A DNA stretch of 64,000 nucleotides from Giardia intestinalis (taxonomy: Eukaryota): NCBI GenBank assembly GCA_000002435.2, contig CM018793.1, one strand, 5' to 3'. The notes beneath the pieces were generated by a model, which saw only the letters and a list, made by a program, of their open reading frames with translations, made no database searches and was not told where the DNA came from. Numbering within the stretch: position 1 is the stretch's first letter; every line of letters begins with the position of its first letter. A program made the position numbers and the translations under genes. Shown one piece after another: positions 12,099-39,591 of the stretch.

Positions 12099-13943
12099 AT
12101 GCCACGAAGGGGCGGACTAGTGAACAGAGCTGTCATGGCCTGTGTGACAGACGCTGGCACAATGTTCTACGCAGTTTTGCTGATCGGCCTCATGCTCGAG
12201 ATGGCACGGGCAGCGCAAGCCGGAGACGAATGCGAAGAGGTAACTGGCAGCGAACCCAACACTTGCAAGGCCTGTAGCGCCGTCATCAACGGCAAGAAGT
12301 ACTGCTCGCAGTGCAACAGCGGTGGGTCTCAATCTGCCCCGACGGACGGCAAGTGCACAACAGACAACAACGAATGTAGCCAAAAACAAGATGGGAAGTG
12401 TACACAGTGCGCTAATAAATCCTTCATGTACAAGGGCGGATGCTACAAGGATAGCCAGGCACCTGGCAACACGATGTGTGAAACAGCAACTGATGGAGTG
12501 TGCACGCAGGCTAAGGCTGGGTACTTCCTACCACCCGATGCTGATAGAGATAATGCACACCAATCGGTCATACCATGTGGAGATGACACAGTAGTAACGC
12601 TTGGAAATAGCAAACAGTACAAGGGCGTACCGCACTGCACTCAGTGTGAGAAGCCCACAGAGGCAAGTGATACTACTACTGCCAAGGCTGCGACGTGCAC
12701 GGCTTGTGAGGACGGGTTCTTTGGGGCTACTTGTGAAGCATGCCAAGACGAGAATTGCGCTACGTGTGCCATGACAGGCAATAACAAGTGCAGTAAGTGT
12801 AAAGGAACTGGTACTAAGACATATCTGAAAGTGGACAGTGGCAGCACAGGCACGTGCGTCGAAGCATCTGGATGTACAGCGGCTACGTTTCCAAAGGTCG
12901 ATGAACAACAGGGAAACAAGTGCGCTGCATGTAATAGTGTGCCAGATGGTGGAATCGCTAATTGTGCGACGTGCAGTCTGCTCACTCAAGGATCTAGAGC
13001 CGCCCCTTTGGTCACATGCTTGACGTGTGAACAAAATAAGTATCTCACTCCAGAAAAGAATGCGTGCTTAGATACCTGCCCTGCTGGAATGTATGCCGTT
13101 AGTGGCGATAGCGGCAATGTTTGTACCCCCTGCCACGAGTCGTGCGCAAGCTGTAGCAATGACGCAGCAACGTCGTGCACGGCCTGCTATCCGGGGCATG
13201 TGCTGAGTCGGTCGTCTGGTGACGCAGGAACGTGCATAAAAGAGTGCACGGGAGACTTTATGGCCCACTGCAAGGCCGACGGCTGCTCACTGAACGTCGG
13301 AGGCTCGAAGTACTGCGATCAGTGCGAGGAGGGGTACGCCCCAGTCGACGGCGTCTGCACATCCATACCTGCAACAGCGAGAGATGCCTCCGGATGTAAG
13401 GCAAGTGGCGGGAAATGCACTGAGTGTGGGGCAAACTACGCTCTGTTATCGGGCGGATGCTACAACACACAGAAGCTTCCTGGTAGCTCTGTGTGTACGG
13501 CTGCACAGAATAAGGGACAATGCCAAACGTGTGCCAATGGACAAAGCCCAGCTGGAGGAAAATGTCCGGCGTGTACTGAAGGATGTGTGAAGTGTGCGGG
13601 TAGTAAGGAAACCTGCACAGATTGCTTAGCAGGGTATTACAAAGGTGCCGGTGATAAATGCTTCAAATGCACGGATAGTGATAAGGCTAGCTCTAATGCA
13701 ATAACTGGTGTAGAAAACTGCATAAGCTGTGCCCCGCCAGCTGGTGGCAATGGCCCTGTCACCTGTTACGTAACGCAACAAAAGGCTGACGATGGCACCG
13801 GCGGAGATACTGGAGGAGACAGCACGAACAAGAGCGGCCTCTCCACGGGCGCCATCGCGGGGATCTCCGTCGCTGTGGTCGCTGTCGTGGGGGGCCTCGT
13901 GGGCTTCCTCTGCTGGTGGTTCCTCTGCCGGGGGAAGGCGTGA
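12099..13943 (+). CDS. VSP: Variant-specific surface protein (VSP), 614 aa as printed
   Basis: The ectodomain is dense in CXXC motifs. There is a GGCY motif, a C-terminal TM, and the invariant tail [16 protein letters not shown]. The stop codon is directly followed by ACTTAGGTAGTGAA. The hydrophobic signal peptide begins at the third in-frame Met ([20 protein letters not shown], nt 12162), so the real start may be 12162. Confidence 0.9.
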
Positions 13944-13959
13944 CTTAGGTAGTGAATGC
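13943..13959 (+). promoter_or_regulatory. Conserved VSP 3' element / extended poly(A) signal (ACTTAGGTAGTGAATGC; AGTGAA core)
   Basis: It lies immediately after the TGA of VSP1. The same motif follows both of the other VSP-type 3' ends in this window. AGTRAA is the known Giardia polyadenylation signal. Confidence 0.7.
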
Positions 13960-13974
13960 TGTACAGTGATAGTG

Positions 13975-14214
13975 ATAGTGCTATGTGGTGTGACATGCTC
14001 TGTGGGTGACTGCAAGAGCTGTGTGATGGATGATGTGTGTGGGGAGTGCAGCGATGGGTTCAGCATAGAGGGTGGCAGGTGTGTGTCTTCTGGCACCAAC
14101 AGGAGCGGGCTCAGCGCGGATGCCATCGCGGGGATCTCTGTGGCTGTCGTCGTCGTCGTCGGAGGGCTTGTCGGCTTCCTCTGCTGGTGGTTCGTGTGCA
14201 GAGGAAAAGCGTAG
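13975..14214 (+). pseudogene. Truncated VSP. Only the C-terminal ~80 codons remain: last CXXC motifs, TM, CRGKA.
   Basis: It translates to ...[76 protein letters not shown]. It starts only 30 bp after the VSP1 stop. It has no signal peptide or N-terminal domain. The Met at 13792 in the ORF track lies inside VSP1 in another frame. The relic is followed by ACTTAGGTAGTAAAT. Confidence 0.7.
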
Positions 14215-14760
14215 ATGTACTTAGGTAGTAAATACGTCACTGTATAAGCCTATCACTCCTGTTTCCAGGGCCTCGCCTGTAGGTGCATTCAAGGATCTCA
14301 CGGGCAATTCTTATTCAATTTCTGGCCGTCCGGAGATGAGGGTTGGTTTTGGATAACATAACGAGAGAGTCCTCTCCAGTGATATATCCAGAGCCTAGCG
14401 CCTTCCCCGGTCGCTCCGCAGGGGTGTGCTCAGACCGAATGCGTACTTCGGTCCTTTCGGGGTTCAGGCCTTCTTACGGACTCTCTGGTCCACCAATGGC
14501 GCCTCTTCTTGGTCTTCCTTCGTGGCGGGTGAAGCTCCGGTCGCTGTCTTTTTTAGATGCCCCGTCTGTCGGGGGCTGCCATCGGGCTCTCCGCTGGCTG
14601 GGCCCCTCGGTGTCCGTCCGGCTGTGTCCCGGGCAGCGCTCTACAGTCGCGGTCACGTAGGTCCCAGTGGGCCGGCTGGTGGGTGGGGCGGGGGTATGGG
14701 GCGGTGAGGCTGGAGGGGCTCTGGTGGGACCAGGTGGTGGGTGTTCGTATGTGCCCCTGA
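14095..14760 (+). repeat. Inverted-repeat arm A (VSP 3' coding end plus ~550 bp of downstream flank)
   Basis: Its reverse complement matches 16375-17060. Identical translated strings appear in opposite-strand ORFs on the two arms: QSRSRRSQWAGWWVGRGYGAVRLEGLWWDQVVGVRMCP, YEHPPPGPTRAPPASPPHTPAPPTSRPTGTYVTATV and FPGRSAGVCS. I also checked a nucleotide alignment by eye. It is about 80-90% identical, with one indel block of about 60 bp. Confidence 0.8.
14219..14236 (+). promoter_or_regulatory. VSP 3' element / poly(A) signal (ACTTAGGTAGTAAATACG)
   Basis: It comes directly after the TAG of the truncated VSP. Confidence 0.6.
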
Positions 14761-16374
14761 GCTCCTGATGAGTGGGGTGATCGCAGCTGTGGTGACTGGG
14801 GGCTGTCCATCTGTGACTCACCCCTCTGTGTGCTCGTGGTCTGTGAGTGCCTCCACCCAGACAACGCCTCAGGAGCCGTGCACACCGGGACAGAGAGGAT
14901 GACCAAGGGGGTCAAGCAGCCCCGCTACGAGAGATGAGAGTGCACAGCAACCAGCCTGATCTGCAGGGCTGCTCGAGCGATGTAGTGGTAGACGGCTCCC
15001 TCTGACAGCGACCCTGGTGACTGCACTGGCCTGCTCTCGAGGCTGAGTGACAGTGTGCACAGATGGACCTGAGTGCAGGAGGACCATCCACACACGAACA
15101 GACTGTGTAGACCCAGAGAGGACTGGAGTCTGCTCGGGACACGCTGACTGTGCCCCCATACGAGAGCACCAGGCAACCACCCGAGCACCCGAGAGGCAAC
15201 AACAGACACGGGCACCAGAGATCCCCAACCAGATACATTGCTACGCTCATCCACAGGGGCATCAGAGGACCAGGTGGGGTCACCCTCACAGTCAGGGCCT
15301 GATAGGAAGCCAGAGGACTCACGCAGCACAGTAGGTCCAAGGGAGGCACACTCCAGGCAGGTGAGCAGTGGCAGAGCCCTGACAGCTGCCAGCCCCCATG
15401 ACACCCAGGCAGGCACCAGACTCACCGAAGACTCCGCTGGCCTCGACTGTCTTCATTGATGACCCGAGGGGGCAGCAGCCAGAGGAGTGAGGAGGCCTTC
15501 GGACGCCACAAGAGGCCCGGCTGTCCAGCAGGCTACGAGGCAGACAGGTGACCTCTGAGCACCACCCAGGCACAGAGCCGACCATCAGAGTGATGCCCGA
15601 TCACAGAGATGATCACGAGCACCCTCCACTGCACTCTGAGGGGCTGTCAATCATCCCAGCTGCCTCTCATAGCAGACCTCCTTGGGGGCAGTGCAGTGGG
15701 TCCCAGCTCATGCAGGAGGGTGCACGCCCCTCGGCATAGGATGCCCCGGCTCTCCCCGAGGGGTCATCAGAGCCACGAGAGGTGTTAAGGTTAGTAGACC
15801 ACACCGGGAACTCCCGAGGGCACAGCAGGTGATGTTGGGTGATCCTCAGCGTGCTCCTCTCTGATGGTAGAGCATCCTGAGACCAAGGAGGCTCACCTCT
15901 GCCTACGGACGACACACAGCGCTCCACAACGAGGACCCACCAGGAGCAGCACAGCTGGTCACGGGGATAGTGCAGCCACCCGGTGCCCCACCATGCCAGT
16001 CTTCTGGGCCATCACACTAGAGGCACGAGAGAATCCATCCCATCCACAGGCTCATCCACACCCCTGCTGGCCCGAGGTGAACTACCGTCGAGGCACTGGA
16101 CAGGGCATGCCAGGGGCTCAGCAGATCCACACAGAGCATCAGCACAGAGCATCAGCGAGTAGCAGGAGAGGCTGCGATGGCCTGCCTCAACCCTCACGCA
16201 CCAGCCAGACAGAGAGGCAGTACTGCCCGAGACAAGGGGCCAAGGGAGGCGCTCAGTCAGGGGGACACGACACGATCGTCGGTGCCTGTGTCTTGGAGTG
16301 CAACGAAGGCTGGGGATCAGACACAACCACCTTAGCAAACAGAGCGGGGATCACCCACCACCCCACTGGCCCAC

Positions 16375-17060
16375 TAGACCCAGGGACACATACGAACACC
16401 CACCACCTGGTCCCACCAGAGCCCCTCCAGCCTCACCGCCCCATACCCCCGCCCCACCCACCAGCCGGCCCACTGGGACCTACGTGACCGCGACTGTGGG
16501 ACCACTGCCCAGAACCACAGCCGGACGGACACCGAGGGGCCCAGCCAGCGGAGAGCCCGGTGGCAGCCCCTGACAGACGGGGCATCTAAAAAGGACAGCG
16601 ACCCGGGCTTCACCCACCGTGAAGGAAGACCAAGGAGAGGCGCCACTGGTGGACGATGTACATGGTGAGTAAGCGGAATCCCAGGCCGACTGAGCAAGCA
16701 TTCCCGGGTGTGCACACTCAGCTGAGCACACCCCTGCGGAGCGACCAGGGAAGGTGCCAGGTTTTAGATATACTAAAAGAGAGGAGCTCCTCGTTATATC
16801 ATCCACAACCAACCTTTGTCTCCGGACACGGCCAAAGGAGCGAGAATTTATTCGTGAGATTTCTGGATCGTACCTACAAGCACCCGGTAGCACATCCATA
16901 TAAGCTACATAAAGTAACGCGTTTACTACCTAAGTCTACGCCTTCCCCCTGCAGAGGAACCACCAGCAGAGGAAGCCCACGAGACCCCCCACAACGACGA
17001 TGACTGCGACGGAGATCCCCGCGATGGCGCCAGTGGAGAGCCCGCTCTTGTTCGTGCTAC
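16375..17060 (-). repeat. Inverted-repeat arm B (3' end of VSP2 plus downstream flank)
   Basis: This is the partner of arm A. See that entry. Confidence 0.8.
16921..16935 (-). promoter_or_regulatory. VSP 3' element / poly(A) signal (ACTTAGGTAGTAAAC on the minus strand)
   Basis: It is the reverse complement of gtttactacctaagt, and it lies immediately 3' of the VSP2 stop. Confidence 0.7.
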
Positions 17061-18168
17061 CACCGGCACTGTCACCGTTCATGAGGTAGCAGAGAACGGA
17101 GCCAGTACTAGACGATGGAGGAGCGCAGCTCATGCAGCCAGCAACTCCCTTGACACTTCCACTGTTGCTGTCACACGAAGTGCATGGTCCAGCTGCTGAT
17201 CCGACCATATAGTACCCAGCTGCGCATGACGTACACTGGTCAGAGCTATCTGCAGCTGAACATGTATTACAGGTTGAATGACACGAGGGGCATGCTCCAT
17301 CATTGGGCCGAAGACTATTAGCACATGTTTCGCACTTACCCCTGCTATCAGCTAATGTGCATATCTGTTTGCCTGGCTGCTTGGTAGTTTCATAGCAGCC
17401 GCCTTCCTTGAGGAAGTAGTTAGCGGCGCATTTGGTACATGCTCCATTATTCATTTCAGTACAGAAAGCTACTCGTGCGTTACTTGTTGTACAGACCCCG
17501 TTCAGAGGAGCCTGATTATCCACTGAGCACTGGGAGCAGTAGTCTGTCCCGCCGATCCTTGCCCCACAGACCTTACATCCGTTCTTGTCCGCCGTACACG
17601 CATCCCCGCAGGTGCCCCCTTGCACAGGATCACTACTTTTGTATATTAATGCCTTGCCAGCAGGACAAGCACTACACTGATTGTTGGCTGGCCCAACGCA
17701 CTCAGCGCACTCAGGGCTGCATGCCTTACACTTCCTGTCAGTATCTCCATAGTATCCGCTGATGGTCGTGCAGTCAGGTATGCACTGGTTTGTTGGAGTG
17801 AGATAATTGTTGTCATTACATTCAGTGCAGACCTCTCTGTCAGTCTTCGGGTTATCACAGGCCTTGCAGTTGGGAGTATTGCAGGCCCCTGCCTTCGGAA
17901 CACACGTGAGCCCGTCCTCTGACGGCTGGTACGTCTCCGTGCACGTGCAGATTCCTCCTGCCTCGTTTGCGTTATCGGGGCACTTCGCTATGCAGCCCTT
18001 TCCGTTCGGCTGGACCTTCTGTCCGACCGTCGCACAGCCCGTGCATGTCTGCTCGCCCCCAGGAGGCGTTGCGCACGTGCTACAGCCGGGTATCGGTGGG
18101 TCACAGGCCGTTTTCGGGCCGATTCCTGCTAGAACCGTTGTGCACACTAAAAGAATTACTGCCAACAT
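16936..18168 (-). CDS. VSP: Variant-specific surface protein (VSP), 410 aa
   Basis: The N-terminal signal peptide is MLAVILLVCTTVLAG. The ectodomain is CXXC-rich, followed by a TM and the tail [12 protein letters not shown]. The ATG at 18168 was verified. The upstream region is AT-rich. Confidence 0.9.
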   Translation of the reverse strand: MLAVILLVCTTVLAGIGPKTACDPPIPGCSTCATPPGGEQTCTGCATVGQKVQPNGKGCIAKCPDNANEAGGICTCTETYQPSEDGLTCVPKAGACNTPNCKACDNPKTDREVCTECNDNNYLTPTNQCIPDCTTISGYYGDTDRKCKACSPECAECVGPANNQCSACPAGKALIYKSSDPVQGGTCGDACTADKNGCKVCGARIGGTDYCSQCSVDNQAPLNGVCTTSNARVAFCTEMNNGACTKCAANYFLKEGGCYETTKQPGKQICTLADSRGKCETCANSLRPNDGACPSCHSTCNTCSAADSSDQCTSCAAGYYMVGSAAGPCTSCDSNSGSVKGVAGCMSCAPPSSSTGSVLCYLMNGDSAGGSTNKSGLSTGAIAGISVAVIVVVGGLVGFLCWWFLCRGKA

Positions 18169-18439
18169 TAAGTTTAAGCTTACGCTCGATTATTATTCTC
18201 TTCAATTAAGCTTATAATTAATCCATAAGTTATAGACAAACCACTGTTACCTTTTGATAAATCAATTAGAATGGAAAAGAATAAAATCAAGAGCACACCT
18301 ACCAGAGGCCGGCTGATAGTGCGGTTCTCCCTGGCTTCAATAGAAACAGGATGAGTGAGGGCTAGACTCAGATCGTGCGTCCCTGCGGAAACTAATAATT
18401 GTTCAGAGATGCATTCCTATACATTGCTGTCAGTATGTT

Positions 18440-22600: not shown

Positions 22601-23171
22601 CCTTAGGCCACGTCTATTCAAGCCAAACAGATTGTCCATTACTTACTATTCCAAAAAGCATGGTGTTTCTTTAATCTTTGACGACACTATCATGCACTTT
22701 CCACACTATCCGGTAGCAATTTCTCGTTTCCATCTTAAAGATACACACCTGATTGCCGTCATTGGCCAGGGCAGAAATAAAAATTACTGGGGAGTTACAT
22801 TTACCGAGTGTACCTTTGGAGGCTCGTGTTCCCTTGTGCGACAAATGGTAGTTGACTTGGGGGTTCCGTATATCTGCGAATCTCACCCCGTCCTCAACAC
22901 CACCACCTCCCAAGCTCCACCTTCGTCCACTGGCAAAATTAGTACAGCATCCATATCGTGCACCGGAGATTCTCTAATATTTACTGTCCCTACAAAGTCT
23001 TTAATGCCAGGAAATTCCGGACAGATGATCCCTGCGACTAGGCTCGTTGAAGTAGGATTTTACACGGAGCTCCGACAGGTAGCTGAGATTGCTGGTGTCT
23101 ATCGCACGCACACACCATTTAGGATTGTCAATTATCAGATACGACCTGTTGAGGGCTGCTTAGGAACATAG
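19635..23171 (+). CDS. Hypothetical protein (1178 aa)
   Basis: It is a long uninterrupted ORF with a verified ATG. I recognised no domain. Confidence 0.8.
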   Translation: MRLHLFHLSTWHYVLTVEYQGVWDSLPGTMHLCTVLQRDTVITQQGSVGAPAFTFATVYTERSVALVVSRLSVVYYDKALSKYISDLDITALDILALMLTSNDDYERVALESYKQIKLKRYRYAGPVLQNEYSTIVLHNIIHAQKSISYLLNRQLLPVSLATDIFKILKSVEASRIRDRLKSDFQKTSQILLRLSSYFSDMELLLISHEPYSSRLSDKDASFIIRTTNPYFSIVHVPRGLAQIATPTPAQLTSLLNAFSPSEQAKIVMESGCTLSVQILSNSTADALNQEYPHTLAYLMRHYFFLPTLVPLLLPFYNINRIFPVLTDPHLSYLHSQSPDSVDATIFSDEPATCTSPLSLKPSIYIELARRYDLRSPNDKSVWLTLEVSQPLSRVGYMYAPYVILSTAFSTHTLHPDDCKIIFDRVKTFEEQQTLYFCQGRLATEISSSGVVLSDIGMLKHTVLNPINKSMASSDMGAYSLADAVVPIFNQSPVDGSASAGYFSREEFSEVLSLFSNKVSALEQQLAVIHAVYEDLYLAITAGPPAHLTNDSNIFYCLSCEDSWRAYRLDCFKYWQGVAPCIDNGAAKALDSCRVLLETDTELCSYHPAKALSDKPVQLSKKDLRQYTATQVNPLPLCSLMKRPILIDKRWALQQQVILYVSGMEKRFALSTGQIYFSIRLHYPQLNLYIIRIETARILTCGQFIAALVLIEDINLSLSDYLNYLSDSIVFTHAPPASTLPSTSVYHCLFTFSLDGAFIGIQPLLLGGLGRYYRSDDADAFTVRTLGIPTRSQTKPASKVATASFDSTFPVYTGPLVASLYTRILSDVASLAVSVSSSVYICLHNLHLVLHLDVLTGEKTLMGCMQSLVHPYSTRFVVSSSASLPIFMDMKLQSILLPASASSLVGELLSDYTDTEVVDILQKDHTIDTGPAASIATYALEESDEIRTPGYCTDTSEGEVDSKRKGSPTNPQTKLDMRFSLLLSDNGRQFLRPRLFKPNRLSITYYSKKHGVSLIFDDTIMHFPHYPVAISRFHLKDTHLIAVIGQGRNKNYWGVTFTECTFGGSCSLVRQMVVDLGVPYICESHPVLNTTTSQAPPSSTGKISTASISCTGDSLIFTVPTKSLMPGNSGQMIPATRLVEVGFYTELRQVAEIAGVYRTHTPFRIVNYQIRPVEGCLGT

Positions 23172-25181
23172 TGGACACATAATCTGCAACAGGTCGGGCA
23201 AAGGAGCCCCGCACCGGATGCACGTATTGGACAAGCTATTCCCATCATCAGTGTCGGGTCCCCCCGCAGTTTCAAGACGATCTTCCTCCTTTCGCTTCAG
23301 AAATCTGCCGAAGATCTTTTTTGTAAGCATCACAAATGAGGACGTTCGTTCTTTTGTAGAATTTGTTGTGGTAACTTCTGAGGTGGTTTCTTGGTCTACG
23401 TGGGGACTTTGTGCTACTGTCTCTGGGAGTGGAGCCTCAGTACCGCTTAATTGCCGCATTAGCGTCATCAGAAGGGACTGAATATCGTCATTCGTTCTAG
23501 TGGGATCATCACTCAATGCAATAGCATCAGTGATAAAATCTAAAAGAGAGCTGGTGAACTGAAGGTGCGACCCTATTTGGCGTTGAAGGGCAGTGATAAG
23601 TGGAGCTGACTCCTGATGTCTGTCTCGCAATTCCGTGAGGATGCGCGTAAGTTCTGTGGTTGTCTTTAAGTGGTGACTTATTCCAGCTCTGAATTTCTGA
23701 TGGAGTAGGAGCGTGTTACCTACTGGAGCATATGCTGCTGGGTCTTGGCCAGGCATATATCTAGAAAAGATGTTACTATTAAGAGTGGATGATCTAAGAG
23801 GTCTCCGAGCGGATATACTAGGAGATTGGTTAGAGTCATTGCTATCTGTGCTAAATCTGTCCGACTTTATTCGTTTATGCCGTGACGGATTAGTTTCACC
23901 TATAGTGTAAAACAGGTCACTCATGCTTACATCGTCAGGATGCACAGATGCGCTTTTTGCTCTATTGGTCCGCCGATACAGGATTGAACCTTGGGCAGGA
24001 GACGCTGGTATAAAGTAAGTAGCGTCTGGAGTATAAGTGAACTTTTCAGTGGAACCGATGTCGTGTACACTTGCGCGTTTTGATGCGGGCGCGCTGCTAA
24101 ACTGCAATGACGAAGAGAGCAGAGCCAGCGCGTCTTCCACAGGCTTAGAAATATTCCCACCCTCAAGGGGCTCTAGATAATCTGCAATATGCTGATAGCC
24201 AAGCTCGTATGCAATTGCGTGGGCTGTCATGCCCCTGTTATCTCTAATGCTAGCCTCATATCGAGCAAGCTCCTTTACGCCATCAAAGTAATCTTCTCTG
24301 GCAGCCAGCATAGTAGCAGTCTGACCGTTCTTATTTTGCAAGCGAGCCTCTTGATCTATTAGTAATCTGATCACCGGAACACGACGATGGATCACAGCAC
24401 TCATAAGAGCTGTTGCTCCATTTTCTGCTTGCAGTCCACCCTCTTCCGCTTTGAGCAAATCTACCAAATCGGCATTACCATTGTTCGCAGCCATCATCAG
24501 TGCAGTTAGCCCATGTCTGCACTGCATCCCCGCTTCTTTTAGGGCAAGAATACGCGCAGAAATGCGTTTGTTGCAGATGACAGCCATCATAAGCGCAGTC
24601 ACCCCTTTGTTGGTTGTCATCCGTGATTCACGCTCTAGAAGTATCCTAATAATCTTGAAGTAGTCACGTTCAGCAGCTAGCATCAGCGCTGTAAATCCTA
24701 CCGCATCTTGCATACCTGCCTCGTGGTCAGAAAGTAGCTGCGCGCCCTCAGTGTGATTCCGCCTGGTAGCTATCATAAGCGCCGTTGTTCCATTAAGTGT
24801 CTGCTTCCGAGCTTCATAAGGCGCAAGAATTCTCATAGCATCAAGCTGCCTATTCTCTGCAGCAAACATAAGCGCAGTTCGACCGTGATGGTCTGCGTGG
24901 CCAGCCTCAAACCTGGAAAGATGCTGGACAGCGCGCACGTTTCCCATGGCTGCAGCAAACATCAAGGCGGTGATTCCGTGACTTGTTTCCGCGCCGTGAT
25001 GTTCTGCAGTATGGGTTTCTAGAGCAGCCAGGTCGTTCTTTGCCGCTGCAATCATCAAAGGAGTAACTTCTGTCGAAGTTAAGGGAGGCTCCATATCAAA
25101 AAACAAGTGTGCCAGATTACTGTGGGACATATCCAGATCGCTATCTAGATCGTGGAGGGTCTCAGCATTCCGCCCGTCCAT
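23160..25181 (-). CDS. Ankyrin-repeat protein (Giardia 'protein 21.1' type) with a C-terminal CxxC...CxxC zinc-ribbon-like end
   Basis: There are about 12 tandem ankyrin units (G.TALM.AA..G, Giardia-style). The C-terminus reads CIRCGAPLPDLLQIMCPLCS. ATG verified. Confidence 0.85.
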   Translation of the reverse strand: MDGRNAETLHDLDSDLDMSHSNLAHLFFDMEPPLTSTEVTPLMIAAAKNDLAALETHTAEHHGAETSHGITALMFAAAMGNVRAVQHLSRFEAGHADHHGRTALMFAAENRQLDAMRILAPYEARKQTLNGTTALMIATRRNHTEGAQLLSDHEAGMQDAVGFTALMLAAERDYFKIIRILLERESRMTTNKGVTALMMAVICNKRISARILALKEAGMQCRHGLTALMMAANNGNADLVDLLKAEEGGLQAENGATALMSAVIHRRVPVIRLLIDQEARLQNKNGQTATMLAAREDYFDGVKELARYEASIRDNRGMTAHAIAYELGYQHIADYLEPLEGGNISKPVEDALALLSSSLQFSSAPASKRASVHDIGSTEKFTYTPDATYFIPASPAQGSILYRRTNRAKSASVHPDDVSMSDLFYTIGETNPSRHKRIKSDRFSTDSNDSNQSPSISARRPLRSSTLNSNIFSRYMPGQDPAAYAPVGNTLLLHQKFRAGISHHLKTTTELTRILTELRDRHQESAPLITALQRQIGSHLQFTSSLLDFITDAIALSDDPTRTNDDIQSLLMTLMRQLSGTEAPLPETVAQSPHVDQETTSEVTTTNSTKERTSSFVMLTKKIFGRFLKRKEEDRLETAGGPDTDDGNSLSNTCIRCGAPLPDLLQIMCPLCS

Positions 25182-28498: not shown

Positions 28499-28674
28499 TT
28501 AACTCAATTTAATGCGAATTTATGACAATACCCTACCATACCATACACTACATTGGCTGCATTTTTAATTTTCATAATTAAGAGATAGAGAGTCCTGCAT
28601 CTACCATAGATCTTATACGGTCTATAGCCTCTTCAGATGAGGTGCAATTGATAGCCACAAGAATCACTTCTCAC

Positions 28675-29262
28675 ATGGAGCGAGCCTTTCAGAGCCGGGC
28701 TAAGCAGCTACATATGATTGTTTTTGGCCTGGGCTCACTTACAGCCAAGCATTCTGCTAAGATCGCCTGTCTGCAACTTGCATTGTTCGAATGTATAGCA
28801 GGCTATATTGACGATGACGAGTCCTCTATCCCAAAGTATGCCATTGACCCTCTTTTTACTGAGCGTGATCGTACTATATTATCTACGCTGGGTTATTCTA
28901 TTCTTCCAGCACAAGATAGTTGCGTACTTTCATCATTCCTGAACTTGCAAGAATCGGATAGGGTGCTTTGTTATCTTCCGCACCTTCCTCTTCACTTGGT
29001 TCTTTCGGCCCTTCTTTCGGCCCCTTCTGGCAGTACGTTTTTGTGCCCGTCGGTGAAAAAGGTCTTAGAATTAGAATTTCTGACCGATTCCAGCTCTCAG
29101 TTATATCATCTATCCTCAAAACTCAAGAAGTTATGGGATGAATCCGACGAATACGATTGGCTCAAAAATAATACAATCACCATTCAACCTATTGTAGAAA
29201 CGACTCTTCTCAGGAGTGCCAATGTGGCTTACAATTGCACGTCTGTGTATATACGGCCTTAG
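28675..29262 (+). CDS. SRR1-like protein
   Basis: The stretch MIVFGLGSLTAKHSAKIACLQLALFECIAGYIDDDESSIPKYAIDPLFTERDRTILSTLGYSIL fits the SRR1-family core pattern (v.clGlGs.s....QlAl.l.l......vyDP.ft..d...l..lG). The start in the ORF track (28642) is a GTG. The first ATG is 28675. Confidence 0.5.
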   Translation: MERAFQSRAKQLHMIVFGLGSLTAKHSAKIACLQLALFECIAGYIDDDESSIPKYAIDPLFTERDRTILSTLGYSILPAQDSCVLSSFLNLQESDRVLCYLPHLPLHLVLSALLSAPSGSTFLCPSVKKVLELEFLTDSSSQLYHLSSKLKKLWDESDEYDWLKNNTITIQPIVETTLLRSANVAYNCTSVYIRP

Positions 29263-29692: not shown

Positions 29693-30559
29693 CTAAGCTG
29701 AAAGCTCGCCCCTCAGGATGTTCGCTATCTCCGGTATAGTTCTCATCTCAAATGCCGTCGGCCTCTTTTTAGGATCAGGGTTCAGCATGGATGACACTAG
29801 GTTGACTAGCTTCTTCGAATATGTCGTTATTATCAGCGGAAGGCGTATCTTCTTCAACGCCTCCAAGGGCTCCTCTGGATTGTCTTCCACCAAGACCCGC
29901 TTCATCATGATTTCATACATGGTGCAGCCAAGCGCAAATATATCCACCTCGCGACCATAGCCTTCGTTGACGATAAGCTCCGGAGCGTAGTATTGAAGAG
30001 TCCCCTGGATATAACCCATCTTTCCCTCCATGCTGAGAAGGTCGCGAGACCACCCGATGTCAGCCAGTTTGCACCTTGTTTCGGAGACCATGAAGATCCT
30101 GCGGGGCATGATGTATCGATGGATGATCGCTCGCGTGAATCTGTGCTCGATGTCCTTCATGCGGGACGGTTCATGGAGCTGACAGATGGCCTCCACCAAG
30201 CAGGCCAGAAGACACCAGCAGGTCTGCTCAGGAAGGAACTCATCCTCAGGAAGACCGTACAGGTAGTCGTTGAGCGTGCCCATGGGGAAGTCCTCCATGA
30301 GGACAAACACCTTCTTGCTCTTTGCTTCATATGTCGCCTCATGAACCGTGGCAAAGAAAGGCGATGCGACCTGTGTAGAGAGCGTGATGTCCGTCTTGCA
30401 AAGGTCACACACCTTGGTAGTGTACTCTTCAAGAGAGATCTGACGACATAAATATCGCTCTCCTGTCTCTTTGTCCTGGACCTCCACCAGACGCTGATAC
30501 TCTGCCTCCTCGATGACACCCACTTCAGTGTACTTATCCGCGAAAGAGAAGGTTTGCAT
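29693..30559 (-). CDS. NEK-like protein kinase domain, predicted catalytically inactive (pseudokinase)
   Basis: The kinase fold is recognisable, with GTLQYYAPE and DIFALGC matching NEK GT.yY.sPE and DiWSLGC. But the catalytic-loop HRD is HRY (IIHRYIMPRRIF), the DFG is DIG, and the VAIK lysine is replaced (YLCRQI). ATG verified. Confidence 0.75.
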   Translation of the reverse strand: MQTFSFADKYTEVGVIEEAEYQRLVEVQDKETGERYLCRQISLEEYTTKVCDLCKTDITLSTQVASPFFATVHEATYEAKSKKVFVLMEDFPMGTLNDYLYGLPEDEFLPEQTCWCLLACLVEAICQLHEPSRMKDIEHRFTRAIIHRYIMPRRIFMVSETRCKLADIGWSRDLLSMEGKMGYIQGTLQYYAPELIVNEGYGREVDIFALGCTMYEIMMKRVLVEDNPEEPLEALKKIRLPLIITTYSKKLVNLVSSMLNPDPKKRPTAFEMRTIPEIANILRGELSA

Positions 30560-30691
30560 TTTTTATGGGTGCATGGAGTGTGAGTTTTTTTGACTCTGTG
30601 GCGTCTAAAGAAGAGGGAATTGCAGTACACGGAAAATGGGTTCAACTGTCTTAGGGACAAGGGAGGGATCCACCTGTTTGCAATTAATAAA

Positions 30692-33600
30692 ATGTCAACG
30701 ACGACCGGGCCTTCTAGCACACAATTGCCCACACTACCGCGTCCATACAGCTACATAGAGACATCTGCATCACACAAAGCGGACTCTTCTCATGCTACCG
30801 CCCGTAATACTGTCACAGGGGAGATTCTACTCTGCCAATTTTCCCGAGGCCCTCAGCTGGATGAGGCAGGTCGTTGGCTTTTACAACTTGATGCGCAGTA
30901 CATTTGTATGCTGCAGCATGCCAATCTTCTGTCCTATCGCTCCATATACTACGATCCTCCTTTGAGCACTTTGACCATTTTGACAGAGATCCCTGGCCAA
31001 AGCCTGTTATCTTTTTGCACTGAGCATTATGCTACCGCGGGGATCCTTCCGCCCGAGTGTATCCTGTGGCGCATCATAGCCCAGACCCTTTCGGTCTACC
31101 ATTACTTGCAGACCCAAGAGCTCTCCCTCTGCGCCTCTGAGGCCGCCCAATACCATTATTATATTATTCCAACTATGACAAACACATATGTGTCTGACAG
31201 CTCGTCATCTTTTTCTATCAAATTGTCATTCGTGGGCGCGACTCACAGTGGGCTAGACTATAGCATTACTCAACCGGAGGACCTATTGTTCAGGCAGTAC
31301 AGGCTGGCTGATGCCGAAAGCTTCTCTTTCACCCGCAGGACGAACGTGATTCTTAGCTTAAAGGCATTGGGCCTGCTTCTATATAATTTCATCTCGTTTG
31401 GAGCTTCCCACCAACTATCTACAGACCCTCTGTCTCAAGAGAAGATAGAGGACATATTAGACTCTGAACAATTTAGAAGCTACTCCCCGGAGTTCCGCAA
31501 GATTTTTTCACTCTTTGTGTCTCCAGGAATATACATTCAGGAGAATGCTATAGATATCACCCATAGTGACATAGATCTTCTTTCATTTTTATCTCATCCT
31601 ATGATTCTATCTGCATTAATAAAATTTGACAATATCAATCTACAATTAAGGTTGCAATCCGTTAAAAAATTATATTCAAAAATTAAAGCTGGGGCCCGAA
31701 AATGGCTGGCTAGGAAGGGCTTGCTTGTTAGGGGAGTCCTTGAAGACTCGGTGGTAGCAGGAGAGTCACGGACTAAGGGCGATAGCAACTCAAAGCAGCG
31801 AAAGGAAAAGCACCATAAGATGAAGGTAAGCTTTCATACTGACCTTTCTGTGCAGAATTATGACAAGAACAGTTGCATTGACCCCAGTGTAGCGTTGGCC
31901 ATACTAGATAATCCTGCTCCACTCGCAACTGACTTTGCTTTGTCTGCAAACATTACTTCAAATGATAACATAACTGAGAACAGGGCACCACAACCCCTAA
32001 CTTCTGATATGAGCTCTGCCTCATCAGGCTATTTTATCATTTCAAAGAAGTGTGACTGGAACCATTGCATCCGTGAGCTAAGAAAGGGGCGAATAAGGCC
32101 ATATAGGTATACTCGCATATTTATTAATCATGAGCCAATGCTCAGTGAGTATGACACCCTCAATAATAACGATCTGATGCCCGACACTTTAATGGAAGAA
32201 ACTAGTCTCTTTGTTAGCCCTTTGATCCTAGCAGCTCTAGAAAACGATGTAAAAGCAATCTCAGAATTTGCACCAAAATATGCAGGGTTGCGCTCTGATC
32301 GGGACGGAATGACGGCCCTCATGTTGGCTGCCGAAGCAGGACACATCGAGGCCACGCTTGAGTTGCGTAACTACGAGGCCTGCTTACGGAGCACTACCTT
32401 CGCCACTGCCATGATGCTAGCTGTTGCTGCGGACCAAACAGAAACAGCCAAGTGTCTTGTTGAATATGAGCACGGATCCACTGACAAGACCTTGCAAACC
32501 GCGCTACGTATTGCGGTTGATCGCGATAATATTGATATGGTGTTCCATTTGGCTAAATATGAGAGCGAGATAGGAGACCTGGACAATTACACACCACTTA
32601 TGTGCGCCATAGAGCAACGAAAGTATGACATTGCTAGGCTACTGGTTCCATATGCTAGTAGGTGCCAAACAACAGACAGACACAAAAAGACCGCTTTGCT
32701 CTTGGCGTTAGAGCAAGGTTACCTGGATTTGGCAGAATGCCTCATACCCCTTGAGGCGTGTCTTCAGGATGGCAATGGAACTACTGCTCTAATAGTCGCC
32801 ATTGAGCAAGGATATGTAGACATTGCCGGTAGGCTTGTTTTGGAAGAGCAAGGACTATGCGATAAAAAGGGCAGAACGGCACTTATGTACGCGGCAAAAA
32901 GAGGCTCACATGGATTGGTACACAAATTAGTGGATGCGGAAGCAAAGAGGCAAGACATCAAAGGTTTCACAGCTCTTATGGTGGCCGTGGCAAAAGAGCA
33001 TGTTGAGCTTGTTGACATCCTAGCACGCCACGAGGCAGGCCTTGCCAACAATGAAGGCCAGCGTGCTATAGATATCGCTATTCATAAAAATAACCAGGAG
33101 ATAATCTCCATTCTACTAGAGCATGAAGGACAATATCTTTCTCATGAAACTTTGCTAAAACTTCTCAAAACATTTCATAGTTCAGACATCCCCATCCTCC
33201 TTCGGCTCAGTACTCTCCTTCAGAAGCATTCCGCCCGCTTCTCTCTCGTCTTGTACGCGTCATCTCACAGCCTTAACGACCTATGCAGTCACATCCTTCA
33301 CTACCCGCAGCTGGTTGCTCGTCACGACCATCTTTATCTTGTAACATATCTTCAACGTACAAACAAAGACACAGAGAATGTCTGGAAGAGCTATTTTAAG
33401 GCTGTGAACACAAATCAGGCATTCAGGATTAATCATTTGATAATGAATGCCCGTCTTAGGAATAAGGAACTACACAGTTACATAGACGAAAAGGCCAGTG
33501 GCGTCCTTCGCTTTAAGATGTTCCTGGAATACGTTATTGTAGCCTCTGTGCAAAAGGAGTTCGAGCCGCTGGAGAAGTACTGCTCAAGCATGGCAGTGTG

Positions 33601-34084
33601 CTCAAAGCGTAAAGGCTTTGAGCGGCAGAAGGTTCCCATGCACGCTGTGGGAGACGTGTCCTTTATTGATTTGATGGTCTCCTCAAACCCCAATGGCAGT
33701 ATTCAGTCTCCAATGGAATTTCTCGCGCCTCGGCCTCCAGAACTCCGTCGTCCAGGGGAGTTTCCAGTCAAGAGCTTCTCTACTTCTCTAGCGAACATTT
33801 TGATAGACTTCTTATTGGAATATGCAACCACCCCCGTCGAGAGTCTCCCTCATCTCTGTGGAGTCTATGACGCTGCAGCTAATGACATGGCAGTGCTTGT
33901 GGAGGAGCTGGAAGGGCACAACCTTTGCTGCTACTGTCATGTACAGCCGATGTCACTGATTTACTGGCCTTGCAGGCACCTTTATGCGTGCTGTGACTGC
34001 GCCAGAAGCATTCAAAGACAGTGCTGCGAGATCTGCAGAGGGAAGATCGAGGGTGGAATCCCACTACCGATGCCGCACGACTAA
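30692..34084 (+). CDS. NEK-like pseudokinase domain + ankyrin repeats + C-terminal C3HC4 RING finger (1130 aa from the first ATG)
   Basis: The N-terminal ~280 aa are kinase-like but lack the glycine loop and HRD. The middle carries about 10 Giardia-style ankyrin repeats (G.TALM.A...G). The C-terminus reads CCYCHVQPMSLIYWPCRHLYACCDCARSIQRQCCEICRGKI, which is a RING. The ORF-track start is a TTG. The first ATG, at 30692, is preceded by TGCAATTAATAAA. Confidence 0.8.
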   Translation: MSTTTGPSSTQLPTLPRPYSYIETSASHKADSSHATARNTVTGEILLCQFSRGPQLDEAGRWLLQLDAQYICMLQHANLLSYRSIYYDPPLSTLTILTEIPGQSLLSFCTEHYATAGILPPECILWRIIAQTLSVYHYLQTQELSLCASEAAQYHYYIIPTMTNTYVSDSSSSFSIKLSFVGATHSGLDYSITQPEDLLFRQYRLADAESFSFTRRTNVILSLKALGLLLYNFISFGASHQLSTDPLSQEKIEDILDSEQFRSYSPEFRKIFSLFVSPGIYIQENAIDITHSDIDLLSFLSHPMILSALIKFDNINLQLRLQSVKKLYSKIKAGARKWLARKGLLVRGVLEDSVVAGESRTKGDSNSKQRKEKHHKMKVSFHTDLSVQNYDKNSCIDPSVALAILDNPAPLATDFALSANITSNDNITENRAPQPLTSDMSSASSGYFIISKKCDWNHCIRELRKGRIRPYRYTRIFINHEPMLSEYDTLNNNDLMPDTLMEETSLFVSPLILAALENDVKAISEFAPKYAGLRSDRDGMTALMLAAEAGHIEATLELRNYEACLRSTTFATAMMLAVAADQTETAKCLVEYEHGSTDKTLQTALRIAVDRDNIDMVFHLAKYESEIGDLDNYTPLMCAIEQRKYDIARLLVPYASRCQTTDRHKKTALLLALEQGYLDLAECLIPLEACLQDGNGTTALIVAIEQGYVDIAGRLVLEEQGLCDKKGRTALMYAAKRGSHGLVHKLVDAEAKRQDIKGFTALMVAVAKEHVELVDILARHEAGLANNEGQRAIDIAIHKNNQEIISILLEHEGQYLSHETLLKLLKTFHSSDIPILLRLSTLLQKHSARFSLVLYASSHSLNDLCSHILHYPQLVARHDHLYLVTYLQRTNKDTENVWKSYFKAVNTNQAFRINHLIMNARLRNKELHSYIDEKASGVLRFKMFLEYVIVASVQKEFEPLEKYCSSMAVCSKRKGFERQKVPMHAVGDVSFIDLMVSSNPNGSIQSPMEFLAPRPPELRRPGEFPVKSFSTSLANILIDFLLEYATTPVESLPHLCGVYDAAANDMAVLVEELEGHNLCCYCHVQPMSLIYWPCRHLYACCDCARSIQRQCCEICRGKIEGGIPLPMPHD

Positions 34085-37998: not shown

Positions 37999-39591
37999 TC
38001 AGGGTAGCTTCTCACGGGGAAGGATGTTGCGCTTCAGTAGGGTTTTTGCCAGTCTCTTCATACGATAACGGACCTGAATGTCGGTTCTGCCCTTGACATA
38101 GTTGGCTATCATCTTCCACTGCCTTGGAGGGCAAAGCTTGACCGCCTCAATTAATGCATTATCGTCCTCAGGCGTCCATTTTCCCTTGACAATTGAGGGA
38201 TCCAGCACACGGAGCCAGTGCTGGCTGCACTGGTCCGCAGAGCGCTCGGGGAGATGTGGACATTCGCGGTGGACAAGCCTGGCGACGTTCTTCCAGTTTC
38301 TTGTGCCAAGGGCGGCGACAACTTTGATCAAAGCCTCGTCTTCTTCTGGTGCCCAGTTCGTGCACGGCTTCCTACGTATTACGTAATAGTCAGTTGTTGA
38401 AGAGTCGGACTCTGCATAGCCATCAGTGCCTCTATCATCCTCTGTGGCCTCTGGCGGGCCGGGAGGACGATAAGCGTCACTCTGGTCGTTAGCAGGCATG
38501 TGGAGTGAACCAGATGTAGGCATTTTCTTGCTCTTGGAGCACGCAGAGGCCAAGTCCTGCTTTGGTCTAGTCTTACCACGTTTGGCGTCATTAGGGAGGG
38601 TTGGAACGGCTCTAATACGCTCATCAATTATGGGGCCGTCTGTGTAGCTCTGTGGAAGCGGATACGCTCGCTGGCTCTGACCGTGGACTTTATGAGCATG
38701 TGTGCTATCTCTGCATCCTAGTTCGTTGGAGCCAGAAGAACACGTGGTGAATGAGGATAGTGTACTGCTCCCGTTGGCTGAAGGAAGAGACACGTCTCCG
38801 GTATCATAGCTGGTGCATGAGTAGGAGCAGTGTCCGGTGTCTTCCTGGAGGTCGTGAGATTGGATGGGCTTAGACTGACCACAATAAACTGGATTGCAGT
38901 TGACGTCGTCATGGAGAAACTCAGAGTGGGGATGGTAGTACTCTCCATAGTCGTGGCAGGTGGCGCCAAAAAAGTTTTGAGGATCATCATATGAGATATC
39001 TACCTGAGAACGCGCTATGTTTTTAATAGGGGAATTTAATTGGTCTACATGGATTACAGACTCCTTCGAATCCCCATACTCCTCAAATAATGGGTATTTT
39101 GTTGATAGCACAGTAGATCCTGTCTCCATGGGATCGTGAGTAATAACTCCCTTGACATTTGGCATGCCCGCGGAAGAATAGCTGGAAGGCATCGGAGTCA
39201 AGGCAGGTGGACTGTATACTACTCCGTGCCCGCCAAAGGAGATGCTTTCCTTGAAAGAGTAAGATAGGGAAGGCGAGGAAAGCTGTCCAGAGCAGTGCGT
39301 GATGTAGTAGCCGTTGTAATGAGGATGCTCAGACGCATTGACGTCGTAGACCTTTTGTGCTGTAGCTACCATAGGAGAGCGGAAAGGGCCAGCTGGTGCC
39401 ACGTAGCACGGAGAGATACGAGCCTTGAAGACGTGGAGCAGGTCATCATTAAAGTGGTCTACAGGATAGTTCTTAGAGAAGGGAGAGGAAACGGCAACAT
39501 ATCCTTGAGCAAACGGAGAGTGGACGCACTGTGGCGGAGTTGGCTGGGGTACGCGTTTCGGTGTTGATGGCTGAGAAGGTACCGGTAACAT
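37999..39591 (-). CDS. Myb-family transcription factor with C-terminal R2R3 Myb repeats (candidate encystation regulator Myb2 / Myb1-like)
   Basis: The C-terminus reads WAPEEDEALIKVVAALGTRNWKNVARLV...KGKWTPEDDNALIEAVKLCPPRQWKMIANYVKGRTDIQVRYRMKRL. That is two SANT/Myb repeats with the conserved W spacing. The N-terminal part is S/P-rich. ATG verified, and the upstream region is AT-rich. Confidence 0.8.
   Translation of the reverse strand: MLPVPSQPSTPKRVPQPTPPQCVHSPFAQGYVAVSSPFSKNYPVDHFNDDLLHVFKARISPCYVAPAGPFRSPMVATAQKVYDVNASEHPHYNGYYITHCSGQLSSPSLSYSFKESISFGGHGVVYSPPALTPMPSSYSSAGMPNVKGVITHDPMETGSTVLSTKYPLFEEYGDSKESVIHVDQLNSPIKNIARSQVDISYDDPQNFFGATCHDYGEYYHPHSEFLHDDVNCNPVYCGQSKPIQSHDLQEDTGHCSYSCTSYDTGDVSLPSANGSSTLSSFTTCSSGSNELGCRDSTHAHKVHGQSQRAYPLPQSYTDGPIIDERIRAVPTLPNDAKRGKTRPKQDLASACSKSKKMPTSGSLHMPANDQSDAYRPPGPPEATEDDRGTDGYAESDSSTTDYYVIRRKPCTNWAPEEDEALIKVVAALGTRNWKNVARLVHRECPHLPERSADQCSQHWLRVLDPSIVKGKWTPEDDNALIEAVKLCPPRQWKMIANYVKGRTDIQVRYRMKRLAKTLLKRNILPREKLP

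Follow-up and report, generated by a model that had tools for sequence, protein, structure and literature searches.

Head-to-head dead-kinase genes in Giardia intestinalis, one of them extended by an ankyrin array and a RING

Two neighboring, divergently transcribed genes of Giardia intestinalis WB both encode kinase-like domains with missing catalytic residues, and the larger protein continues into an ankyrin array and a C-terminal RING. This description is correct, but the arrangement is ordinary. The genes are probably two old, independently diverged and non-catalytic members of the Giardia-specific Nek / Protein 21.1 expansion, placed head-to-head within a conserved part of the chromosome. 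Within the window (the whole analyzed stretch of 64,000 nucleotides), the open reading frames (ORFs) start 132 bp apart, as the first-pass annotation of this DNA had stated, and gene names were assigned by exact match to named records:

29693..30559, minus strand: small gene GL50803_24321, 288 aa (XP_001704780.1 / A8BUH6; ORF and exact record match)
30560..30691, no strand: divergent intergenic spacer, 132 bp (from the sequence)
30692..34084, plus strand: large gene GL50803_41467, 1130 aa, ATG at 30692 and end at 34084 (XP_001704778.1 / A8BUH2; ORF and exact record match)

The records of GL50803_41467 carry the names 'Ankyrin repeat protein 2' and 'Protein 21.1'.

Literature and databases already covered the two genes, the dead status of their proteins, the ankyrin repeats of the large one and the class of architecture. 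Both genes are catalogued as "dead Neks" of the class 'Nek-Unclassified' in the Giardia kinome, with the entries GK261 and GK446 (Manning et al., 2011, Table S1). GL50803_24321 is listed there as 'Dead Nek - missing K72, D166' and GL50803_41467 as 'Dead Nek - missing K72, D166, D184' with 9 Ank. Giardia has ~200 'Nek' kinases, about 70% of which are catalytically dead. [quoted passage not shown] Some Neks and 21.1 proteins are known to end in a RING, and 21.1 proteins can contain cryptic kinase domains. For Giardia, the combination of dead kinase, ankyrin repeats and RING has been described before, for example in GK190 (GL50803_14934), a dead Nek that carries a RING besides 14 Ank repeats (Manning et al., 2011). 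The large protein shares with GK190-type proteins the organism, the domain order, the TALM-type repeats and the loss of K72 and D166. The pair is a small addition to knowledge. New here are the kinase homology of GL50803_41467 across the whole domain, C-lobe included, up to about aa 281-310, the confirmation of its IAP-type RING, a conserved RVxF-like motif in its linker, and purifying selection on all domains together with the persistence of both architecture and gene pair out to G. muris. From the first-pass annotation, the dead kinase-like domains, the ankyrin repeats, the RING and the placement in the Giardia expansion stand, all in agreement with the published catalogue (Manning et al., 2011, Table S1), hhalign and structure searches; a destroyed DIG motif, a local duplication and a shared promoter do not.

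GL50803_24321 is a single-domain Nek-type pseudokinase (Pfam Pkinase E 7.5e-28). Its eukaryotic protein kinase-like fold is evident from a PF00069 match of 98.1 bits over aa 24-273 (cut-off 31.7 bits), and hhalign against Giardia Neks yields E 2e-40. The best solved relatives are human Nek7 and Nek1 (~3.5e-16), which lead PKR and STK24 in the PDB by only about 3 bits. A word-indexed search with the small protein as query returned orthologues and nothing else. Three catalytic positions were mapped:

30443..30445, minus strand: R39 where the VAIK lysine (K72) would stand (published Nek alignment and residue check)
30113..30121, minus strand: H147-R148-Y149 replacing HRD, with Tyr for the catalytic Asp (Nek7 alignment and residue check)
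30053..30061, minus strand: D167-I168-G169, with the DFG-equivalent Asp kept (Nek7 alignment, KLADIG vs KLGDLG)

The glycine loop is gone, and with R39 and Y149 the domain lacks what a competent kinase needs. The substitutions of the VAIK lysine and of HRD had been read correctly at the outset. The DIG motif, which had been counted among the destroyed residues, is intact in this respect because D167 is kept and aligns with the corresponding Asp of Nek7, which itself has DLG; the published list of missing residues names K72 and D166 only. GL50803_24321 has been localized by GFP fusion to the ventral disc and is known as the ventral-disc protein DAP24321. It is a stand-alone pseudokinase, having neither glycine loop, K72 nor catalytic Asp, and probably serves as a structural or regulatory part of the disc.

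The kinase-like domain of the large protein is far more degenerate:

30797..31621, plus strand: degenerate kinase-like (pseudokinase) domain, about aa 36-310 (residue mapping, Q49 at K72 and D67 at the alpha-C Glu)

Pfam Pkinase finds no match in the large protein even at E <= 10, and an HMMER profile of the N-terminus retrieves no kinase from the PDB, the sole match being a spurious glucanase (E 0.1). When 1.84 billion representatives were searched exhaustively with an HMMER profile, the only matches were the orthologue cluster and its G. muris counterpart, without paralogues, and a word-indexed search with the 6-sequence alignment gave no matches even at E <= 10. Although Pfam and HMMER are negative, hhalign detects kinase homology across both lobes. 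The 6-orthologue alignment of the N-terminus matches 13 Giardia Nek domains, taken as printed in Table S1 (Manning et al., 2011), with Prob 98.5 and E 4e-15 over 222 columns (aa 36-281), and canonical kinases with E 7.5e-8, whereas one reversed and 30 column-shuffled controls remain at E >= 0.048. Among 18 sampled kinases, the domain is nearest to Giardia 'Nek-Unclassified' domains. Moreover, structure searches with the predicted N-terminus return kinases only, and the top Foldseek match is Nek2, albeit from a low-confidence model (pLDDT 45; an earlier AlphaFold model with 5 close orthologues had 34). A match with the PAN3 pseudokinase likewise comes from a low-confidence model; no sequence relationship to PAN3 was detected, and PAN3 differs in that it binds ATP and is part of a deadenylase complex. 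The proposed kinase-like nature of this N-terminus is therefore borne out by the hhalign match and its clean controls.

H155-Y156-Y157 occupies the HRD position, N164 that of N171, F180 that of the DFG Asp and Q194-P195-E196 that of APE. The glycine loop is absent, and the absence of this loop and of an intact HRD had been noted before. Judged by K72, D166 and D184 (PKA numbering) and the glycine loop, the domain is not catalytically competent (Q49, Y157, F180). The loss of catalytic residues from both kinase-like domains agrees with the published kinome, which records for GK446 a kinase domain of aa 38-137 only and no RING, in contrast to the homology to about aa 281-310 and the RING found here (Manning et al., 2011). 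Having lost the glycine loop, K72, D166 and D184, the large domain should be unable to bind phosphate or transfer it by the normal mechanism. Human Nek2, Nek7 and Nek1, in contrast to the pair, are active kinases with a glycine loop, K72, HRD and D(F/L)G, and they lack the ankyrin repeats and the RING of the large protein.

The pair had been suggested to originate from local duplication, which could have been an inverted duplication of one Nek gene with a later gain of ankyrin repeats and a RING by one copy. The genes are physically adjacent, and a Tyr sits at the position of the catalytic Asp in both (small protein HRY, large protein HYY, its G. muris orthologue RRY). However, hhalign of the small against the large family gives E 0.002 and Prob 13%, BLASTP of the small protein against the large N-terminus finds nothing significant, and the small protein ranks only 11th of the 18 sampled kinases for the large one, behind GK305, GK164, GK442 and GK445. 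For the small protein, in turn, every canonical kinase tested, AGC included, scores far better than the large protein. The local duplication is unsupported because the two kinase-like domains do not appear to be sisters, and we regard it as very improbable, bearing in mind that the comparison sampled 18 of about 280 Giardia kinases and that the large domain is so extremely diverged that sisterhood might go unseen.

Downstream of the kinase-like domain, the large protein comprises four further features:

31802..31876, plus strand: conserved linker island, aa 371-395, with K378-V-S-F381 (most conserved part of the linker)
32207..33154, plus strand: ankyrin array, aa 506-821 (Pfam Ank_2 4.2e-51; repeat register)
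33155..33916, plus strand: region between ankyrin array and RING, aa 822-1075 (no Pfam family; conserved in orthologues)
33926..34036, plus strand: C3HC4 RING of the IAP type (zf-C3HC4_3), aa 1079-1115 (Pfam 30.9 bits, 27-bit cut-off)

Pfam assigns no family to the linker or to the pre-RING region (the latter at E <= 0.1). K378-V-S-F381 is the sole [RK][VI]x[FW] match in the large protein; it is kept in 5/5 orthologues and reads RVSF in G. muris, making it a candidate docking motif of the RVxF type by its sequence. The ankyrin array contains nine clear TALM-type repeats with a period of 31-33 aa from aa 539 onward, preceded by an N-terminal capping repeat, which fits the earlier count of about 10. 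It belongs to the Giardia TALM subtype, with an exact TALM in three repeats and TALL, TALI, TALR, TPLM or TAMM-like variants in the others. The C-terminal RING, likewise recognized earlier, follows the pattern C-x2-C-x11-C-x-H-x3-C-x2-C-x8-C-x2-C, and its eight zinc ligands (C1079, C1082, C1094, H1096, C1100, C1103, C1112 and C1115) do not vary among the assemblage orthologues. Its best solved matches are the RINGs of cIAP2 (E 5.8e-8), cIAP1, livin and XIAP. The G. muris orthologue (1080 aa) also has Ank repeats and a zf-C3HC4_3 domain (2.9e-9) in which none of the eight zinc ligands is lost and the spacing is the same. Purifying selection acts on all domains: dN/dS between WB and P15 is 0.018 for the small gene and, within the large gene, 0.137 for the pseudokinase, 0.08 for the ankyrin array and 0.058 for the RING, so the ankyrin array has the lowest value in the large protein after the RING.

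The domain composition suggests that the large protein is a modular scaffold, in which the degenerate kinase-like domain and the array of 9-10 ankyrin repeats most likely bind and target proteins and the most likely task of the IAP-type RING is to recruit E2~ubiquitin. Such recruitment would make it an E3 ligase. A substrate-recruiting ligase is plausible, although the class is not new, and the combination of dead kinase fold, ankyrin repeats and RING points to one plausible use of dead Neks, as targeting modules of ubiquitin ligases. A literature search for GL50803_41467 by name returned no paper and neither a ubiquitination assay nor a localization. RINGs usually contact the E2 through an aliphatic residue between Cys1 and Cys2, a Pro after Cys7 and a basic residue after Cys8. 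The WB protein has Y1081, E1113 and R1116 at these positions (C-C-Y-C vs C-x-[ILV]-C and C-E-I-C vs C-P-x-C), and E1113 and R1116 vary among orthologues (I or F for E, G for R; C-F-V-C in G. muris). Because these positions are non-canonical and variable, the RING could be weak, E2-specific or non-catalytic. The same residues would fit a RING that serves as a structural zinc-binding or dimerization domain within a purely structural ankyrin scaffold of the 21.1 type, as would the published location of many 21.1 proteins and dead Neks at cytoskeletal structures, where they have been proposed to act structurally. This alternative seems unlikely, given that the eight zinc ligands and their spacing are kept as far as G. 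muris, that no other part of the large protein has a dN/dS as low as the RING, and that the nearest solved relatives of the RING are the active E3 RINGs of cIAP1, cIAP2, XIAP, MYLIP and MDM2. A bolder version of the ligase reading, in which the large protein docks protein phosphatase 1 via K/R-V-S-F (cf. KVHF in human Nek2) and acts with DAP24321 in remodeling of the ventral disc, is very unlikely, but if true it would provide a worked example of the purpose of the Giardia 'dead Nek' expansion.

The large protein resembles several known systems in part. It shares with the IAP RINGs (cIAP1, cIAP2, XIAP, livin) the C3HC4 spacing, the PC-x-H-L-x-x-C-x-x-CA core and the C-terminal position, but the hydrophobic residue and the Pro at the E2-contact positions are replaced. 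Mind bomb combines ankyrin repeats with C-terminal RINGs of the zf-C3HC4_3 Pfam family. In contrast to IAPs and Mind bomb, the large protein has no BIR, CARD or MIB/HERC2 domains and instead carries an N-terminal dead kinase. Arabidopsis KEG unites RING, kinase, ankyrin and HERC2-like repeats in one polypeptide and thus likewise combines a kinase fold, ankyrin repeats and a RING, though its RING is N-terminal and of another subtype. In Tribbles-COP1, a dead kinase fold brings substrates to a RING ligase, but in trans. The likeness to KEG and Tribbles lies in the domain families only and implies no further homology.

A functional link between the neighbors may be envisaged if both were co-expressed from the 132-bp spacer as a bidirectional promoter and the proteins cooperated; for instance, the disc pseudokinase might be a binding partner or ubiquitination target of the large E3 scaffold, or the two dead kinase domains might associate with each other. 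G. muris and four assemblage-level genomes of G. intestinalis all keep the head-to-head order, with a spacer of 130-151 bp. However, L7Ae adjoins the large gene in all genomes compared, and ERCC4 and EF-hand genes lie on the same sides of the pair in G. muris. The pair is therefore not specifically preserved, since its conservation sits within a wider syntenic block. The spacer does not favor a single regulatory unit either. An AT-rich block of its own immediately precedes each ATG (minus strand, cccataaaaaATG; plus strand, aattaataaaATG); among assemblages these ATG-proximal blocks are conserved and the middle is variable, and nothing in the spacer aligns with G. muris. The shared promoter had thus been over-read. 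Our search found no expression or interaction data for the pair, and cooperation of the two genes as a unit appears improbable. Chance alone would moreover produce roughly seven adjacent Nek-Nek pairs across the genome, estimated from Neks making up ~3.7% of the proteome.

The region carries two long ORFs on opposite strands, and an exact-sequence look-up assigns both proteins to Giardia intestinalis WB C6:

29693-30559 (-): small gene, GL50803_24321, 288 aa; exact match to XP_001704780.1 / A8BUH6, recorded as 'Kinase, NEK'
30560-30691: spacer between the two start codons
30590-34084 (+): ORF of the large gene, GL50803_41467, in which ATG is first met at 30692, giving 1130 aa; exact match to XP_001704778.1 / A8BUH2, recorded as 'Ankyrin repeat protein 2'

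The spacer confirms the 132 bp between start codons in the first-pass annotation. In strain P15, the orthologue of the large protein is recorded as 'Protein 21.1'.

All essentials have been published before, for these very genes or for their class. Table S1 of the Giardia kinome lists GL50803_24321 as GK261, 'Nek-Unclassified, 1:1:1, Dead Nek - missing K72, D166', and GL50803_41467 as GK446, 'Nek-Unclassified, 1:1:1, Dead Nek - missing K72, D166, D184', with 9 ankyrin repeats (PKA numbering; Manning et al. 2011, PMC3218828). According to the same study, 71% of Giardia Neks are dead, 67% have ankyrin repeats C-terminal to the kinase domain, some Neks and Protein 21.1 members have carboxy-terminal RING domains, and 20 proteins annotated 21.1 harbour very divergent kinase domains; GK190, also a dead Nek, carries 14 ankyrin repeats together with a C-terminal RING (Manning et al. 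2011, PMC3218828, with Table S1). GFP-tagged GL50803_24321, named DAP24321 and considered a probable pseudokinase, localizes to the ventral disc, especially its posterior tips, and to the cytoplasm (Hagen et al. 2011, PMC3243723). A8BUH6 was later listed among the stand-alone pseudokinases and linked to stage transition (2025 re-annotation). In the literature searched, no paper was found that treats GL50803_41467 by name.

The small protein matches Pkinase in Pfam over aa 24-273 (E 7.5e-28). Among solved structures, Nek7 and Nek1 match it best (~3.5e-16), with PKR and STK24 only slightly behind. Alignment and residue checks agree with the first-pass annotation that arginine (R39) replaces the VAIK lysine and that HRD reads HRY (H147-R148-Y149, aligned with Nek7); the glycine loop is gone. 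The DIG motif had been counted as a further lesion, which it is not, because D167-I168-G169 lines up with DLG, the native motif of Nek7, and keeps the metal-binding Asp. The published list of missing residues, K72 and D166 only, agrees with this retained Asp (Manning et al. 2011, PMC3218828). Two ORFs of 150-190 aa in other frames over the small gene and spacer, at 29993-30451 (+) and 30157-30732 (-), are most likely spurious. The P15 orthologue (locus record L004, 2000-2959) is annotated with 319 aa; its start codon was probably called too far upstream, since in the other genomes the protein is 288 aa long and has the same MQTFSF start.

The kinase-like domain of the large protein is far more divergent. 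It gave no Pfam kinase match even at E <= 10, and a HMMER profile of five orthologues found no kinase in PDB. When 1.84 billion representatives were searched exhaustively with a profile, the sole hits were the orthologue cluster and a single distant orthologue of full length, the G. muris protein P0037. We compared a 6-sequence N-terminal alignment, profile to profile, with 13 Giardia Nek kinase domains from Manning's table, leaving out GK446. Here, aa 36-281 aligned with nearly the entire domain (Prob 98.5%, E 4e-15, 222 columns), and a profile of three active Neks and five AGC kinases gave E 7.5e-8; neither the reversed alignment nor 30 column shuffles ever beat E 0.048. The register places Q49 at K72, D67 at the alpha-C Glu, H155-Y156-Y157 at HRD, N164 at N171, K-L-S-F180-V-G at K-L-x-D-F-G and Q-P-E at APE, while LKALGLLLYNFISFG falls on the DxWSLG helix and YSPEFRKIFSLFVSPG on helix H. 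As this register runs through the whole domain, the kinase homology covers both lobes, beyond the aa 38-137 given in Table S1, where the RING is unrecorded (Manning et al. 2011, PMC3218828); the profile-profile alignment stretches the domain to about aa 281-310 (30797-31621). The proposed kinase fold of the large N-terminus thus survived the alignment test with clean controls, and sequence profiles place the region in that fold. AlphaFold2, run on the six orthologues alone with neither kinases in the alignment nor templates, produced a low-confidence model (pLDDT 44.9, pTM 0.43). The 50 PDB structures that match it best in Foldseek are protein kinases without exception (TM 0.34-0.46), headed by Nek2 (E 6.7e-3), so that the predicted structure supports but does not prove fold membership.

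Selection maintains both dead domains, a pattern more in keeping with a non-catalytic function than with decay.

dN/dS between WB and P15 (Nei-Gojobori; dS ~0.6, unsaturated)
Large protein, pseudokinase domain: 0.137
Large protein, ankyrin array: 0.080
Large protein, region before the RING: 0.119
Large protein, RING: 0.058
Small gene, whole: 0.018

The pseudokinase-ankyrin-RING architecture proposed for the large protein is right. The predicted ten or so ankyrin repeats correspond to an array at aa 506-821, in which a capping repeat precedes nine clear repeats of 31-33 aa and Giardia TALM type, starting at aa 539. The C-terminus carries the expected C3HC4 RING at aa 1079-1115 (C-x2-C-x11-C-x-H-x3-C-x2-C-x8-C-x2-C), above the zf-C3HC4_3 threshold of current Pfam and nearest to the RINGs of cIAP2, cIAP1, livin and XIAP. 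None of the eight ligands varies in four further orthologues from the G. intestinalis complex, and G. muris has them too. The usual E2-touching positions are unusual, with Tyr between Cys1 and Cys2, Glu, Ile or Phe for Pro after Cys7, and no conserved basic residue after Cys8, and for this reason ubiquitin-ligase activity can only be suggested from the sequence. We infer that an E3 scaffold is the most likely mechanism. The otherwise variable, basic linker contains K-V-S-F (aa 378-381; 31823-31834) within its most conserved island (31802-31876). It is the sole [RK][VI]x[FW] match across the 1130 aa and is kept in 5/5 orthologues, with R-V-S-F as its form in both G. muris and one assemblage. 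As human Nek2 reportedly docks PP1 through KVHF, K-V-S-F may be a candidate PP1-docking motif.

The first-pass annotation had proposed a shared promoter for the pair, suggesting co-regulation or an origin by local duplication. Both proteins have Tyr at the catalytic-Asp position, which is a weak shared trait and seems to occur in GK445 too. BLASTP of the small protein against the large N-terminus found nothing, and hhalign of the two families gave E 0.002 (Prob 13%), while the small protein reaches 1e-10 to 1e-24 against canonical kinases, AGC kinases included. When each family was scored against 18 individual kinases, the small protein ranked 11th for the large one, behind GK305, GK164, GK442 and GK445 among others. 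Local duplication is thus unsupported, although, with a small sample and a long branch for the large domain, a sister relationship may have been missed. Since Neks make up ~3.7% of the proteome (Manning et al. 2011, PMC3218828), random placement predicts roughly seven adjacent Nek-Nek pairs, about two of them head-to-head.

The head-to-head arrangement is kept in three other G. intestinalis-complex genomes, with spacers of 130 and 133 bp in two and ~134 bp in P15 (if the small gene starts so as to encode 288 aa and not the annotated 319 aa), and in G. muris (151 bp). In every genome compared, the large gene is followed by the gene for ribosomal L7Ae, and G. muris has ERCC4 and EF-hand genes on the same sides of the pair. 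As these neighbours are also conserved, the pair is part of a general syntenic block. An AT-rich stretch, aattaataaaATG, lies directly upstream of the large-gene ATG, and cccataaaaaATG upstream of the small-gene ATG on its own strand. Among assemblages both ATG-flanking ends are conserved and the middle is variable, and the spacer does not align with that of G. muris. This pattern would suit a pair of short promoters better than the single shared element suggested earlier.

Other features of the window include:

10000-18200: GC-rich stretch, 0.55-0.61 vs ~0.47 elsewhere
12099-13943 (+) and 16936-18168 (-): two variant-specific surface protein genes in this stretch
23160-25181 (-): ankyrin-only Protein 21.1-type ORF
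28642-29262 (+): SRR1-domain ORF (2.9e-20), 3' neighbour of the small gene
37999-39591 (-): Myb-domain protein, 530 aa, ~4 kb past the large gene
54313-55680 (+): kinase ORF (Pkinase 3.6e-63)
55717-57702 (-): 661-aa ORF matching Pfam BBS1, ciliary BBSome subunit 1 (9.7e-9; 35.5 bits, above the 27-bit cut-off)

The further ankyrin-only and kinase ORFs illustrate the dense scatter of both families. Giardia is usually described as having no BBSome, and the BBS1-matching ORF may thus merit attention.
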